From Escherichia coli (lineage in GTDB: Bacteria; Pseudomonadota; Gammaproteobacteria; Enterobacterales; Enterobacteriaceae), in NCBI RefSeq assembly GCF_003334305.1, contig NZ_QOWS01000024.1: a stretch of DNA of 64,000 nt. The stretch is one strand, 5' to 3'. Position 1 is the first letter of the stretch, and the number at the start of each line of letters is the position of its first letter. The notes under the pieces were generated by a model, which ran no database searches, was not told the DNA's origin, and saw nothing but the letters and a program-made list of their open reading frames with translations. The position numbers were made by a program, and so were the translations under genes. Shown piece after piece: positions 42,727 to 49,688 of this stretch.

Positions 42727-43868
<1,142 letters not shown>

Positions 43869-43969
43869 AAAAAGCCCGTCCAGTAACGGACGGGCAAACA
43901 AGGGTAATATAGGATCAATGAGGGTTAGAGCATATGCGTCTGTCGGCAAACAGACAGGGAAATACTTGT

Positions 43970-44092
43970 GCTGGACGTAGCGTAAACGCCTGATCCGTCC
44001 AACGGTTCGGATTTTGTAGGCCTGATAAGACGCGGTAGCGTCGCATCAGGCATCTGTTGCCGGATGCGGCGTAAACGCCTTATCCGTCCTAC
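43970..44092. repeat. REP/BIME cluster between ybiC and ybiJ
   Basis: At least three REP-type palindromes (GTAGGCCTGATAAGACGCGGTAGCGTCGCATCAGGCA, TGCCGGATGCGGCGTAAACGCCTTATCCGTCCTAC and another). Confidence 0.8.
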
Positions 44093-44095
44093 GAA

Positions 44096-44356
44096 TTACT
44101 TATAAATTACCGCAGTACCGCTTAATTTATTGTTGTTGGTGGCGGAAGTGATGCTGTATCCACTGGCACCGGCTGCCGCGGCTTTCTCAGCCAGTTTCGC
44201 TTCCAGGGCATCGAGGGTGGATGCGCCATCGGCAGAAACCACGCCGATTTTATTCATGTTCTGTGCCTGGGATGCCGTTACCGGTTCCGCGGCAAACACG
44301 CCAAATGACAGAGTTGAAAGAGCCATAGCAGCAACAACAGTATTGATAGTTTTCAT
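44096..44356 (-). CDS. ybiJ: YbiJ, DUF1471 (YhcN-family) secreted small protein
   Basis: 86 aa with signal peptide. Confidence 0.88.
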   Translation of the reverse strand: MKTINTVVAAMALSTLSFGVFAAEPVTASQAQNMNKIGVVSADGASTLDALEAKLAEKAAAAGASGYSITSATNNNKLSGTAVIYK

Positions 44357-44620
44357 AATTAATCTCTCGCAGGTGATTTTTGTATAAGTGACGTTGTTTC
44401 GTCGATGTGATGAGTATCACGTTTTTTTACGAGAGATAAAATCGAAGAGAATTGACCGCCTTGTTCAAATAAATTGATTGATATCTAACCTACTGATAAA
44501 CCATTTATTTGTTGTACTTATGAACTTGTTTTATACCGCGTGGCAGTCACAGCAGCGTTAAAGGCACGGAATGCCACGCAAAATACAAATTATACTCGCT
44601 ATGCATCTCGCCAGTTGTAG

Positions 44621-44887
44621 TTAACGTAACTGGCTGTCTTTCGAACCTCTGCGATTATATCCTGTATAAGCTGGTTTTTGTAAATCTTTCTCCTGCTGAC
44701 AATGAATACATAAGCGCACGCCAGGAATGGCTTCCCGACGGGCCTGCGGGATGGGGGCACCGCACTCTTCACATTCATCCAGGCTTTCGCCGCGCGGAAT
44801 TTCACCCCGAGCGCGGGAAATCGCATCTTCAATTGTACTGTTGATCTGTTCGTTGACGGCGTCATCGTTAGCCCAACCGGATGCCAT
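44621..44887 (-). CDS. ybiI: YbiI, DksA/TraR-family C4 zinc-finger protein
   Basis: 88 aa; CEECGAPIP...CIHCQ four-cysteine motif. Confidence 0.88.
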   Translation of the reverse strand: MASGWANDDAVNEQINSTIEDAISRARGEIPRGESLDECEECGAPIPQARREAIPGVRLCIHCQQEKDLQKPAYTGYNRRGSKDSQLR

Positions 44888-44960
44888 ATCGACCTCCCCA
44901 TATCAATACTTGTACAGTTAAGTGTAGCTAATCCAGGGACGAACTCGGGCAGTTCAAGCA

Positions 44961-45638
44961 TCAGATCTCCGACCATTCCCGCAGCAGATTATGATAAAGA
45001 TTAAGCAGCGACAGGATCTCTTCACTTTCGCCGTAGCGGCTTTTCAGCGACTGAATATTGTTGTCCAGTTCAAACAGCATGGCGCGCTTTTTATCATCGC
45101 GGATCATCGACTGGATCCACATAAATGATGCCACTCGTACGCCGCGGGTTACGGGTGTCACGCAATGCAGGCTGCTGGAGGGATACAACACGAGATCGCC
45201 TGCCGGGAGTTTTACCCGATGTTGTCCGAAGGTGTCATTAACGACCAGTTCGCCGCCGTCGTAGCTTTGTGGATCGCTTAAAAACAGCGTGGCAGAAAGG
45301 TCAGTACGCATCCAGCCGTTTTGTGGATGGCTGCGTACTGCGCCATCCACATGGAAACCATAGGTTTCATTGTTCTGATAGCGATTAAACAGCGGCGTGG
45401 AAAGGGTACGCGGCAAGGCCGCGGCAAAGAATAAAGCATGTTGGTTAACCGCGTTCAGCACCTCATTTTGCAGGGCGGCGTATAACGTGCTGCGGGTGTC
45501 GACCTGTTGATTGTTCTTAACTTGCGCACCTTGTGCGCCGGTGGTGACGCGTCCATCCACCCATTCGGCTTGTTCCAGTTGTTCGCGAAACCGGGCGACG
45601 TCCTGTGGCGATAACACGCCGGGAATGTGGTACATCAT
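44961..45638 (-). CDS. ybiX: YbiX, Fe(II)/2-oxoglutarate-dependent (PKHD-type) hydroxylase
   Basis: 225 aa from MMYHIPGVL; HxD...H iron-binding residues apparent. Confidence 0.88.
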
Positions 45639-45679
45639 ACAAGTTCTCCAAAAAGTGGGGCCTGCGCCCCACATCTGAA

Positions 45680-47962
45680 TCAGAAATGCATATTGGCTGT
45701 GAGCAAGAAGGTTCTTGGCTCGCCCGGGTGATAACGGTAGCCGCTCTTGTTGATTGAGGCGACGTAATCGGTATCAAACAGGTTGTAAACGTTTAGCTGG
45801 AAGTCGAGATTGCGATTAACCCGATACCCCAGTTTGGCATCGGCGACCCAGTAACCTTCGGTAAACGCTGGCGTTCCCACCGCGCCGTCTGAACCTTTAT
45901 GCATACTGCCGATATAGCGTGCGCCCGCGCCAACAGAGATATCATCGGTTGCCTGATACTGGCTCCATAAGGTGAAGGCGTGCTCCGGGGTATACGGCAG
46001 CGATGAGGAACCATCCTGGGCAACATCTTTGCCGTTTTTGATGGTTGCTTTTTGCTGGGTATAGCCGCCAATCACCTGCCACGCGGGAGTGATATTCCCG
46101 GCCACGGATATCTCATAGCCTTCGACACGTTTCTTACCGTATTGCGAGTAAGTTCCGTCATCATTTTGCTCAACTTCATTTTCGATATCAGTACGGAATA
46201 GCGCGGCGGTGAGCAACAGGCGTTTATCCAGAACCTGCCATTTGGTGCCAATCTCGCTGGTGTTGGCTTTTTGCGGTTTAAAATCGGTGCGGTTGGCACT
46301 GTTACCGCTGCCAGACTGCGCAAGGGCGAAGTTGTTGCCGCCCGGAGGCTGCTGGGAAACGGCATAGTTAATATAGACATTACCGTTTTCCGTCAGGTGA
46401 TACAGCGCCCCGGCTTTCCAGTTCACCAGATTGCCCGACTTGGCGGTGTCGACGGTGGTGACCGGAGAACCTTTTGCCACACCAGTTGGGCAGGTGATGG
46501 CACCGCGTCCGCTGCCGCCGCAGGCGGTGGCACTGTCATATTCAGTATGATAATTATCCAGACGGATCCCGCCGTTCAGCTCAAAATCACGGGTGATTTG
46601 CAGCGTATCGAAGGCGTAAATTGCGAAGGTATCCGTCTGACCATTGGCGTTTGCGCCGTTGCGCGTCAGGCCGCCGGGATGAATGCTGCTGTCAGGATGA
46701 TAAATATTTACCGCGGGTAACGTCACCGGATTAACGCCGTAGTTAGTCTGCGTTTCACGGGTAAATTCCACGCCGGTACTGACATCATGACCGATAGAAC
46801 CGGTATAGAACGTCGAGGTCAGGTTGGTCTGGTTGGTGAGAATTTTATTACTCACATCTTTGGTATTCGCCGTGCGTGACCAGGTCCAGCTATTCACATC
46901 GCTGGTGGGCTGAGTAATATTCGACGCCCCGCCCATAATCGCCGTCATCAGGTAATCCTGCTTTACGCGCGACCAACGGGTAGTATTGCGAATGGTGGTG
47001 TTATCGTTGATGTCGTGCTCAAAACGCATGGTGGCGGTGTCGGTGGTCGAATCGTCGTAATCGGAATCCGTGCCGTAAAAGTTATGAGTATCAACTTTTC
47101 CGGAATGATTCAGAGCCGCTGTTCCCGCAGATGGGGCAGAATAACCCGGCAAACCGATGGTCGGAATGCCGCCGTCTGGCGTGTTGTGCTGGGTGACATG
47201 CAGATAATTAAGATACAAACGATTCGCTGTACCAAGGCCAAAAGCGATAGAAGGGGCGACGCCGTAACGCTCATTTTTGACTTTGTCGCGTCCGGCATCG
47301 TGCGTTTTTTCGCCCATCACATTCAGGCGCACCGCAGTGGTATCACCAATGACCTGATTGACGTCCAGCGTGCCGCGGCGGAACCAGGCGCTGCCAATAC
47401 TGGCGGAGGCGTCAATGCCGGAATCATTGCGCGGCTGCTTGCTGATCATATTGATCGAGCCCGTCGGCGCGCTGCGCCCGTAGTCGGTGCCGGAAGGCCC
47501 TTTAATCACTTCGACCTGCTCAGTATTGAAGGTGTCGCGCGAGACGCTGCCGATATCGCGAATGCCATCAATATAAATACTGTTAGAGGTATCAGCACCG
47601 CGCATATAAATGGCGTCGCCAGTGGTGGAGTTACCGTTCTCACCCGCAAAAAACGCACCCACGCCGGGGACGTTTTTGAGCGCGTCGGTAAGGTTGGTTG
47701 CGCCCTGATCTTTAATCACTTGTTCAGAAATCACCGTCATCGTGCGGGTAGTATCCGCTACCGGACGCGAGAATTTCGGATCGGCAGATTGTTGTGGCGC
47801 ATAAAGCGAAGGCGTTGATGCTTCGACAACCAGCGTGTCATCCGCGTTAGTTTGCCCTTCGGCGGCGAGTGCCTGAGCCACAGGCGTGATGCCAATACAA
47901 AGACCGGCAAAGAACGTGAGCGAATGAAATTGTCTGGCAGGGAAATTGCGATTGTTTTCCAT
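45680..47962 (-). CDS. fiu: Fiu, TonB-dependent catecholate-siderophore outer-membrane receptor
   Basis: 760 aa; signal peptide, TonB-dependent receptor plug and barrel, C-terminal aromatic residue. Confidence 0.95.
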
Positions 47963-48065
47963 TTTGCAGGTGACTTTTTTTATATGTTGAAATTTTCACT
48001 GCCACGAGAAAGCCTCTCTGCGGATGCGATGCCACTGTTAATCTCGTGATAGTGTTCGTGCAAGT

Positions 48066-48090
48066 GATAATAATTTTGATAAGCATTATC
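48066..48090. promoter_or_regulatory. Fur box in fiu promoter
   Basis: GATAATAATTTTGATAAGCATTATC, overlapping GATAAT-type hexamers about 105-130 bp upstream of fiu start. Confidence 0.75.
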
Positions 48091-48225
48091 ACTTGGCGCG
48101 ATTTTCTATCACCCATTGCGCGAAAAAGAAATACATTTATTTACATTGCGTTCATATTTGATGTTTTTTGATTACAAAACAGGCGAAAACTGCATCCAGA
48201 GGCGAATGCAGTTACGTTGGTGGGG

Positions 48226-48486
48226 TTATTTGTAGATGGTTGCAGTACCGAACATCTGGTCATTTCCGCCTGCGGAATTAATGACATAACCTTTCGCGCC
48301 TTGCTCGCGCGCTTTTTCTGCCAGTTTATCCTCCAGATCGCTTAGGTTTGATGCGCCAGTTGCCGAAACGGTACCGGCGGGCCGTAGCTGACCGCTGTCC
48401 AGGTTACTCATCGGTTGCGCGGCATAAGCCGTGAGAGAGATTCCGCTCAGGACGGTGGCAATCAGTAGTGTGAGGCACTTTTTCAT
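48226..48486 (-). CDS. mcbA: McbA (YbiM), DUF1471 (YhcN-family) periplasmic protein
   Basis: 86 aa from MKKCLTLLIATVLSG; ORF track over-extended. Confidence 0.85.
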   Translation of the reverse strand: MKKCLTLLIATVLSGISLTAYAAQPMSNLDSGQLRPAGTVSATGASNLSDLEDKLAEKAREQGAKGYVINSAGGNDQMFGTATIYK

Positions 48487-48761
48487 AATGACATCCTCAT
48501 AAATACAACGGGTAGTGCCTGATAAGTGTAGGTCGCCTGGGCGATGAAAATGACGCAAAAAATTGACAGAGATGTGCTTATTTTTTGAACGATATATTTT
48601 TACAAAATAAGACAAATCAATGACATGCATAATGCTGATTTTTATGATGAATTGCCATAAACCATAGCCATGTTAAGGTTTTGGGGAATGATAAACGCAG
48701 CCAGATATTTACCCTGTCGCGTTATGCGGGTATCTTACGCCGCTGCTTAAAGGAGAATGCT

Positions 48762-49688
48762 ATGTCCGCCCAGAAACCGGGGTTGCATCCGCGCAACCGT
48801 CATCACAGCCGCTACGATCTCGCCACGCTTTGTCAGGTCAATCCTGAACTCAGGCAATTCCTCACGCTTACACCCGCCGGGGAGCAAAGCGTAGACTTTG
48901 CCAATCCGCTGGCGGTGAAGGCGCTCAATAAGGCGTTGCTGGCCCATTTTTACGCCGTAGCGAACTGGGAAATCCCCGACGGTTTTCTCTGCCCACCAGT
49001 ACCGGGCCGGGCGGATTATATTCATCACCTTGCCGATTTACTGGCTGAAGCAAGCGGAACAATTCCAGCGAATGCCAGCATTCTGGATATCGGCGTTGGT
49101 GCGAACTGTATTTATCCGCTGATTGGCGTACATGAATATGGCTGGCGTTTTACCGGTAGTGAAACCAGCAGCCAGGCGTTAAGCAGTGCGCAGGCGATTA
49201 TCAGTGCTAATCCGGGGCTTAACCGCGCCATTCGTCTGCGTCGGCAAAAAGAGAGTGGGGCAATTTTTAACGGCATCATCCATAAAAACGAGCAATACGA
49301 CGCGACCTTGTGTAACCCGCCATTCCACGATTCCGCCGCTGCAGCGCGGGCAGGTAGTGAGCGTAAACGCCGTAACCTGGGGCTGAACAAAGACGATGCA
49401 CTGAACTTTGGTGGTCAGCAACAGGAGTTGTGGTGTGAAGGTGGTGAAGTCGCCTTTATCAAAAAGATGATTGAAGAGAGCAAAGGCTTCGCGAAGCAGG
49501 TGATGTGGTTTACCTCGCTGGTATCTCGTGGTGAAAACTTACCGCCGTTGTATCGTGCTCTGACCGACGTGGGCGCGGTGAAGGTGGTAAAAAAAGAGAT
49601 GGCCCAGGGGCAAAAGCAGAGTCGCTTTATTGCCTGGACCTTTATGAACGACGAGCAGCGCCGCCGTTTTGTTAATCGCCAACGTTAA
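48762..49688 (+). CDS. rlmF: RlmF, 23S rRNA m6A1618 methyltransferase
   Basis: 308 aa from [15 protein letters not shown]; NPPF methyltransferase motif. Confidence 0.9.

Follow-up and report, generated by a model that had tools for sequence, protein, structure and literature searches.

The DNA analyzed here (the window) is a 64,000-nucleotide stretch of the Escherichia coli genome (contig NZ_QOWS01000024.1 of RefSeq assembly GCF_003334305.1). Attention was centered on the span 44096-48486, which reaches from the stop codon of ybiJ (44096) to the start codon of mcbA (48486), both of them minus-strand genes. An earlier note, composed from the letters of this DNA, had described them as two DUF1471 paralogs that flank an iron-regulated fiu operon. 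At 41.6-52 kb, the gene order is ybiB (+), hcxB/ybiC (+), ybiJ (-), ybiI (-), ybiX (-), fiu (-), mcbA (-), rlmF (+), ybiO (-). RefSeq gives the names ybiJ, ybiI, ybiX, fiu, and mcbA, in window order, on an identical E. coli segment. Many E. coli chromosomes match the 4.8-kb segment at 43900-48700 with 100% identity, and at least 80% of this segment was found in one place in 5417 of the 5426 complete E. coli genomes. The RefSeq protein accessions at the locus are WP_000849301.1 and WP_000710619.1 (the E. coli K-12 YbiJ and McbA/YbiM entries), and the window genes do not differ from K-12 ybiJ (b0802) and mcbA/ybiM (b0806). The two genes, their paralogy, and their arrangement are already known; every annotation of E. 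coli, like the literature on DUF1471, includes the genes, the paralogy, and the map positions.

Both ybiJ (44096-44356, minus strand) and mcbA, also called ybiM (48226-48486, minus strand), encode DUF1471 periplasmic proteins of 86 amino acids. The identification of ybiJ was made from the open reading frame (ORF), Pfam PF07338, NCBIfam NF007611, and RefSeq annotation, and that of mcbA from PF07338, NCBIfam NF040473, and an AlphaFold2 model. When compared using BLASTP, YbiJ and McbA aligned without gaps from end to end, with 40 identities in 86 positions (47%) and an E value of 1e-22. PF07338 (YdgH_BhsA-like, formerly DUF1471, YhcN family) was matched by residues 34-86 of YbiJ (E 1.2e-17) and by residues 34-86 of McbA (E 3e-19), with model positions 1-55 fully covered in both. 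YbiJ scored 173.1 bits on NF007611 and McbA 174.5 bits on NF040473; the curated cut-off is 110 in each case. The two proteins do align as DUF1471 members, and the paralogy that had been proposed is upheld. Their length and their signal peptides had likewise been described correctly, the latter according to a rule-based prediction: both N-termini resemble Sec signal peptides, featuring K2, a hydrophobic segment at residues 5-20 (mean Kyte-Doolittle hydropathy of the core 1.5 in YbiJ and 2.0 in McbA), and an AxA motif before residue 23/24 (VFA/A or AYA/A, preceding the mature part). McbA has been described as periplasmic in the literature, and a YbiJ-msfGFP fusion was reported to be enriched in the envelope.

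Structural modeling was carried out for McbA only. The AlphaFold2 model had a predicted local distance difference test score (pLDDT) above 90 over residues 34-86, with secondary-structure elements in the order strand-helix-strand-strand. The top Foldseek matches of this model were 2JNA/2MA8 (SrfN), 4EVU/2M2J (YdgH), and 2NOC; by sequence, PDB entries 2NOC and 2MA4 were matched by both YbiJ and McbA. The predicted fold thus agrees with the solved mixed α+β type of SrfN, YdgH, and YahO. The model also resembled RcsF, an outer-membrane lipoprotein with a small α+β fold (Foldseek E 8.6e-3, template-modeling (TM) score 0.52, root-mean-square deviation 3.0 Å over 68 columns, 13% sequence identity). 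However, the traits of the RcsF family, i.e. a lipobox cysteine, a lipidated N-terminal linker, and two disulfides, are not those of YbiJ or McbA: the single cysteine of McbA is at residue 4, within the signal peptide, YbiJ has none, and a lipobox is absent from both. The resemblance is one of fold only, and neither protein is a member of the RcsF family. The McbA-like proteins of Kluyvera (loci L037 and L085; 45-52% identity to E. coli McbA) begin with a segment that ends in ...TTGC or ...TTAC. This looks like a lipoprotein signal, whereas the remaining orthologs carry an AxA site for signal peptidase I. When 1.84 billion representative proteins were searched with a profile, only 430 DUF1471 clusters were returned; this library carries no taxonomy, and all named DUF1471 matches and loci found were from Enterobacteriaceae. 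No further DUF1471 ORF was found within the 64-kb window.

Three genes lie between the paralogs. The immediate neighbor of ybiJ is ybiI (44621-44887, minus strand), a gene missing from the earlier note, which sits between ybiX and ybiJ and encodes an 88-residue DksA/TraR-type C4 zinc-finger protein (160 bits on NCBIfam NF008243; cut-off 96). It is followed by ybiX (44961-45638, minus strand), identified by NCBIfam NF003972 (520 bits) and annotation as a PKHD-type Fe(II)/2-oxoglutarate hydroxylase, and by fiu (45680-47962, minus strand), identified by its 760-residue ORF and annotation as a TonB-dependent catecholate siderophore receptor. In the Leclercia ortholog of Fiu, Plug and TonB-dependent receptor barrel domains were detected.

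Synteny of the block and loss of fiu-ybiX

Species-representative genomes were scanned using RlmF as the anchor, and the 80 resulting loci were annotated by ORF, BLAST, and hidden Markov model searches. The counts that follow refer to the 70 loci that reach from ybiB to rlmF. A ybiJ gene was present in 69 of these, and it was adjacent to ybiI in 65. By comparison, mcbA was found in 44 loci and fiu-ybiX in 28; they were seen together, each without the other, and both missing. The complete arrangement ybiJ-ybiI-ybiX-fiu-mcbA was found in 22 of 70 loci. Another 20 had ybiJ-ybiI-mcbA without fiu (including E. albertii, Citrobacter amalonaticus, C. sedlakii, C. werkmanii, several Enterobacter, Trabulsiella, and Yokenella), and ybiJ-ybiI stood alone in a further 20 (including Salmonella arizonae and diarizonae, Kosakonia, Phytobacter, and Superficieibacter). 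In five loci, from the Klebsiella oxytoca group and Kluyvera, fiu was present without mcbA. In all, ybiJ was kept in 40 fiu-less genomes and mcbA in 21. With the exception of one frameshifted case, ybiX and fiu were always both present or both absent. Orthologs of McbA were found in Escherichia, Shigella, Citrobacter, Leclercia, and Huaxiibacter; contigs from Citrobacter and Huaxiibacter carried rlmF, mcbA, ybiI, ybiJ, and ybiB without fiu-ybiX, and Leclercia had the E. coli order. Salmonella lacked mcbA in the loci examined here, which reproduces a published observation; the paralogy of ybiJ and mcbA has been published as well (PMC4092069; PMC12282094).

The history of these genes was reconstructed on a neighbor-joining species tree built from three linked proteins (RlmF+YbiB+YbiO), and the Fitch minimum number of changes was 5 for fiu, 7 for mcbA, and one each for ybiJ and ybiI. 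Pairwise Fiu distances were correlated with core-gene distances (r=0.95), and the identities of Fiu and YbiX followed those of the flanking genes. This tracking therefore points to vertical descent of fiu-ybiX with repeated loss, rather than to repeated insertion.

Traces of such losses were found at the junctions. In E. albertii (L017), the DNA from the mcbA terminator to ybiI contains a remnant of ca. 68 nt of the coding sequence for the Fiu signal peptide (local score 39, against a maximum of 27 in shuffles), and fiu-ybiX must accordingly have been deleted there. Apart from this remnant, fiu and its promoter are gone from this genome, as is nearly all of ybiX, and both paralogs are intact. 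In C. werkmanii (L027), ca. 25 nt of the 3' end of ybiX were retained. These two deletions look like recent and independent events. Both remnants came from sensitive blastn searches of the junctions; tblastn at E≤1e-3 returned no Fiu or YbiX remnants, and no remnant of fiu or ybiX was found by sensitive blastn at the C. amalonaticus junction. For mcbA, a tblastn search of the 26 loci that lack the gene gave nothing at E≤1; mcbA may therefore have been lost from these loci or never have been there.

Other genera have unrelated cassettes in the ybiI-rlmF interval, which is therefore a plastic spot. In Pseudescherichia vulneris, a 7.6-kb block encoding a LysR protein, a branched-chain-type ABC transporter, and an amidohydrolase lies between ybiI and mcbA (L063 1935-9575). 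The ybiI-rlmF interval of Enterobacter sp. kpr-6 contains an 8.4-kb island with large ATPase-like ORFs (L049 1609-10001), and that of Leclercia sp. UBA7405 contains a resolvase-like gene (L074 2393-3418). In Klebsiella, Kosakonia, and Pseudocitrobacter, a gene for a flavin-reductase-like protein of ca. 205 residues adjoins rlmF (L045/L053).

Transcription signals

All statements about regulation in this study rest on literature or on motifs. The fiu promoter contains a Fur box region (48072-48112, minus strand) with a 15/19 match to GATAATGATAATCATTATC. Among the 28 fiu-bearing loci scored, 27 had a Fur box of 14-17/19 upstream of fiu; the sole exception (11/19) was Kluyvera genomosp. 3 (L085), in which Fiu aligned in three pieces. 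When the regions upstream of ybiJ, mcbA, and ybiI were scanned in all loci, including those without fiu, only scores of 9-14/19 were obtained, which lie in the background range (10-12) or near it. In the window itself, the best matches were 11/19 for ybiJ, 13/19 for mcbA, and 15/19 for fiu. A strong Fur box is thus found only upstream of fiu, and it therefore travels with the fiu-ybiX cassette. The Fur-1 iModulon contains fiu, ybiX, and ybiI; ybiJ and mcbA are not listed in it (PMC10164565). That the unit between the paralogs is iron-regulated, as had been stated in the earlier note, is borne out by both the Fur box and the iModulon.

The gene mcbA has its own intrinsic terminator (48170-48216, minus strand), a hairpin with a U-tract (-14.1 kcal/mol, z -3.7), which separates the gene from the fiu promoter downstream of it. 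The stem of this terminator was conserved, with differing loops, in E. albertii and Citrobacter. By their Fur-box scores, the mcbA terminator, and the iModulon list, ybiJ and mcbA do not belong to the Fur-regulated fiu unit.

For ybiI, the spacer at 44888-44960 contains a conserved -10-like element, TAcACT (TATACT or TATAAT in other genera), ca. 40 nt upstream of the ATG. It is kept in fiu-less genomes, where the Fur box is not present. Because this element persists without fiu, ybiI is probably more than just the final gene of the fiu operon. A peak of RNA polymerase holoenzyme binding in vitro has been reported in the ybiX-ybiI spacer (PMC5493296).

The region upstream of ybiJ (44357-44480, minus strand) contains long, near-invariant blocks in an alignment of 20 genera. 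One of these blocks, almost invariant in the 20 genera of Enterobacteriaceae, includes a CRP-like palindrome, cGTGATACTCATCACA, at 44406-44421, which has one mismatch to TGTGA-N6-TCACA; a small conserved hairpin (GACG..CGTC) comes after it. The number of CRP-like matches in the window (2, with 1.6 expected) is not significant, and only the conservation of this one is notable; the near-invariant palindrome may help studies of the still-cryptic DUF1471 family. Upstream of mcbA (48487-48640, minus strand), the blocks TGATTTGTCA..TTGTCAA..GTTCAAAAAA..TTTTTTGCG..CCTACACTTA were conserved across 13 genera, with conserved TTGTCA repeats. The blocks upstream of the two genes are unrelated to each other. 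Each gene does possess an upstream region of its own, as claimed previously, one that is conserved across about 13-20 genera and that differs between ybiJ and mcbA. We infer that these blocks are promoters or operators. Neither ybiJ nor mcbA was assigned a convincing promoter by a scan for the sigma-70 consensus; that the two genes have separate promoters is thus argued from the conservation of the upstream blocks, not from consensus matches.

Published data assign different signals to the two genes. Expression of ybiJ is strongly and specifically induced by acid (PMC10746267). McbR (YncC) represses ybiM/mcbA (PMC4092069, PMC7705038), and its binding to the ybiM promoter has been reported (Zhang 2008, as cited in PMC7705038). 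An effect of McbA/YbiM on colanic acid and biofilm is attributed to the same 2008 work where it is cited (PMC4092069, PMC7705038).

Downstream of ybiJ, a terminator scan identified a G+C-rich hairpin with T-runs (43874-43895) between the convergent hcxB and ybiJ. Its folding energy is -17.6 kcal/mol (z -5.3), and 0 of 200 shuffled sequences folded as well. It is likely a bidirectional intrinsic terminator that would end the ybiJ transcript after the repeat element described in the last section.

Origin and placement of the two paralogs

The earlier note had called the clustering of paralogs around fiu suggestive but possibly coincidental. Whether DUF1471 genes cluster in general was assessed in K-12 using ten of them (ybiJ and mcbA along with yjfN, bsmA, yjfY, bhsA, yhcN, ydgH, rclB, and yahO) and a chance model of ten genes placed at random on the 4.64-Mb chromosome. 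One pair no more than 4.4 kb apart has p=0.08 under random placement. K-12 has two such pairs (p=0.003 for two or more) and four pairs no more than 9 kb apart (p=1e-4 for four or more). As a family, DUF1471 genes are clustered in K-12 beyond chance, which is expected of a family that grows by local duplication. A second instance of the flanking geometry is present in the same genome: the adjoining genes yjfN and bsmA lie on one side, and yjfY on the other, of yjfP-ulaR-ulaG-ulaABCDEF (L002 16018-24792). As with ybiJ and mcbA, DUF1471 paralogs occupy both sides of an unrelated gene set, but these paralogs are of other subfamilies (20-30% identity), and the genes between them serve sugar metabolism, not iron uptake. 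The geometry is therefore a habit of the DUF1471 family.

The relationship between YbiJ and McbA was examined together with BhsA (YcfR), which, like YhcN, is a protein of 85-87 residues with a signal peptide and one domain and is 43-47% identical to both. BhsA and YhcN are stress-induced, e.g. by acid (PMC10746267), but they are encoded at other chromosomal sites and have other regulators; comR is divergent beside bhsA. The reported function of BhsA is a reduction of copper permeability (PMC12096828). The E. coli YbiJ, McbA, and BhsA proteins are about equidistant (46.5%, 46.5%, and 43% identity; 73.6, 72, and 69.7 bits). Neighbor-joining trees of 139 DUF1471 sequences, in which BhsA and YhcN orthologs were under-sampled, were calculated from all 86 columns or from 63 mature-protein columns with 200 bootstraps. 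The bootstrap values were 48 for the McbA clade and 23-34 for the YbiJ clade, and the order among the YbiJ, McbA, and BhsA groups had support of about 0. Third codon positions of ybiJ and mcbA are 31% identical. Their upstream regions share no similarity (local alignment score 18; shuffle mean 18.2), nor did any shared upstream motif exceed shuffled controls. Given these third positions and the dissimilar upstream regions, the duplication that separates ybiJ from mcbA is ancient. Relative to linked core proteins, the slopes of evolutionary rate were 1.97 (ca. twofold) for McbA, 0.99 for YbiJ, and 0.74 for Fiu (L013-L092).

How mcbA came to its site was considered in two ways. Local duplication of ybiJ, or of a common ancestor, could have produced mcbA, with ybiI, ybiX, and fiu acquired or retained between the copies afterwards. 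We hold this origin to be possible, at somewhat below an even chance. The two genes share orientation and length, in 44 of 70 loci they are part of a single conserved block (with only ybiI between them in 20 of these), and they are directly adjacent in Cedecea, with a gap of 403 bp. YbiJ is also the best E. coli paralog of McbA by BLASTP, albeit narrowly (72 vs. 69.7 bits), and local growth of the family is suggested by the K-12 clustering, including the adjacent yjfN-bsmA, and by other adjacent pairs noted by Eletsky (2014). Yet the trees give a YbiJ+McbA sister grouping no support, the saturated third positions and the upstream regions preserve no residual similarity, and the profile scores lean toward BhsA: the BhsA NCBIfam model outscored the model of the other paralog both for YbiJ (116 vs. 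80.6 bits) and for McbA (101.5 vs. 74.3 bits), and the second-best match of McbA orthologs was usually BhsA, not YbiJ. These last results would be explained if mcbA were a bhsA-like copy, relocated or horizontally acquired, that landed beside rlmF and whose nearness to ybiJ is accidental. The plasticity of the ybiI-rlmF interval fits such an arrival, as do the modest p value for a single pair at 4.4-kb spacing and the ambiguous root state of mcbA in the Fitch reconstruction. It is nonetheless a rather unlikely history in our estimation. McbA distances follow core-gene distances (r=0.84), the McbA clade is monophyletic and its site constant, no traces of mobile elements were seen flanking mcbA in E. 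coli, and the BhsA profile may just be broader or slower-evolving. Because the three proteins are about equidistant and the deep bootstrap values are near 0, mcbA may or may not have arisen from ybiJ in place.

A functional reason for the arrangement would be that DUF1471 proteins with an RcsF-like fold gate or sense the Fiu outer-membrane barrel and are kept adjacent to it for that purpose. The resemblance of the McbA model to RcsF and published hypotheses that DUF1471 proteins bind outer-membrane proteins (PMC12096828, PMC12282094) are compatible with this idea, as is a nominal co-occurrence of fiu and mcbA. It appears very improbable to us, since both ybiJ and mcbA are kept in many fiu-less genomes, fiu occurs without mcbA, regulation is not shared, and the block of the closely related E. 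albertii differs from that of E. coli only by the deletion of fiu-ybiX, with the paralogs intact. The corresponding specific proposal, that McbA and perhaps YbiJ modulate the permeability of Fiu or report its state and that selection maintains the linkage where fiu is kept, is hardly to be expected. Nothing tying YbiJ or McbA to Fiu was found in the synteny, motif, fold, and literature analyses performed here. By analogy with RcsF, the molecular role of DUF1471 proteins has been proposed to lie in modulating envelope permeability or in interacting with outer-membrane proteins (PMC12096828, PMC12282094); in Klebsiella, a knockout of six DUF1471 genes had no phenotype (PMC11057644).

Since fiu-ybiX is dispensable within a conserved block, the flanking of fiu by ybiJ and mcbA is, with high probability, a by-product of genome history and not a functional unit. 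According to this reading, ybiJ and mcbA are anciently diverged, separately transcribed members of DUF1471 that encode small, Sec-exported periplasmic proteins with an RcsF-like α+β fold. They hold fixed positions in the Enterobacteriaceae block ybiB-ybiJ-ybiI-[ybiX-fiu]-mcbA-rlmF-ybiO, in which the Fur-regulated fiu-ybiX is a dispensable cassette, vertically inherited where present and repeatedly deleted without disturbance of the paralogs. Separate signals reach the parts of the block: repression by McbR for mcbA and acid stress for ybiJ (both from the literature), and Fur for fiu-ybiX-ybiI. The present analysis demonstrates the homology and fold, the states of synteny, the remnants of deletion, the distribution of Fur boxes, the terminator of mcbA, and the distinct conserved blocks upstream of the two genes; we infer that YbiJ and McbA act on the cell envelope.

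Several points weigh against this interpretation. No convincing terminator was found in the ybiI-ybiJ spacer by terminator scan or RNA folding, so some read-through from the Fur unit into ybiJ is possible. The species tree used for counting changes is a neighbor-joining tree based on three linked proteins rather than on whole genomes. Finally, the fiu-by-mcbA table (23/5/21/21) yields an odds ratio of 4.6 (Fisher p=0.011, uncorrected for phylogeny). A fiu-mcbA linkage based on this p value was considered and rejected, because the taxa are not independent and the events are few.

The coincidental half of the previous assessment therefore holds in that fiu-ybiX varies independently of the paralogs across the 70 loci; the suggested link to fiu does not. 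What is not coincidental is that both paralogs reside in one syntenic block and that DUF1471 genes tend to cluster, which is a matter of gene-family history and not of a link to fiu. In practice, it would be a mistake to regard the arrangement as a module linked to fiu. The stable unit in Enterobacteriaceae is ybiJ-ybiI, often with mcbA, and fiu-ybiX is a repeatedly deleted cassette in a plastic interval beside rlmF; this, too, may be of use to work on the DUF1471 family.

Repeats and other minor features

An Rfam scan of 43500-49000 yielded a single match, the repeat-derived naRNA4, and no small RNA or riboswitch was found in that range. The match (RF02564, 78.4 bits; gathering score 59.5) corresponds to a pair of repetitive extragenic palindrome/bacterial interspersed mosaic element (REP/BIME) repeats at 44019-44089 (minus strand), in the 3' region of ybiJ. 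Because of this pair, the segment used as a query matched ca. 11 places per E. coli genome. In the K-12 annotation, the small RNA bhsB overlaps the 3' end of bhsA (L003 9304-9403); apart from the REP element, the 3' ends of ybiJ and mcbA gave no match to an equivalent RNA family. Next to the REP-rich region, the spacer between hcxB and ybiJ contains a RefSeq-annotated 20-residue protein, YbiE (43934-43993, +). IS621 (IS110 family) is inserted exactly at the REP pair, between ybiE and ybiJ, in several E. coli strains (L093 726-1706).

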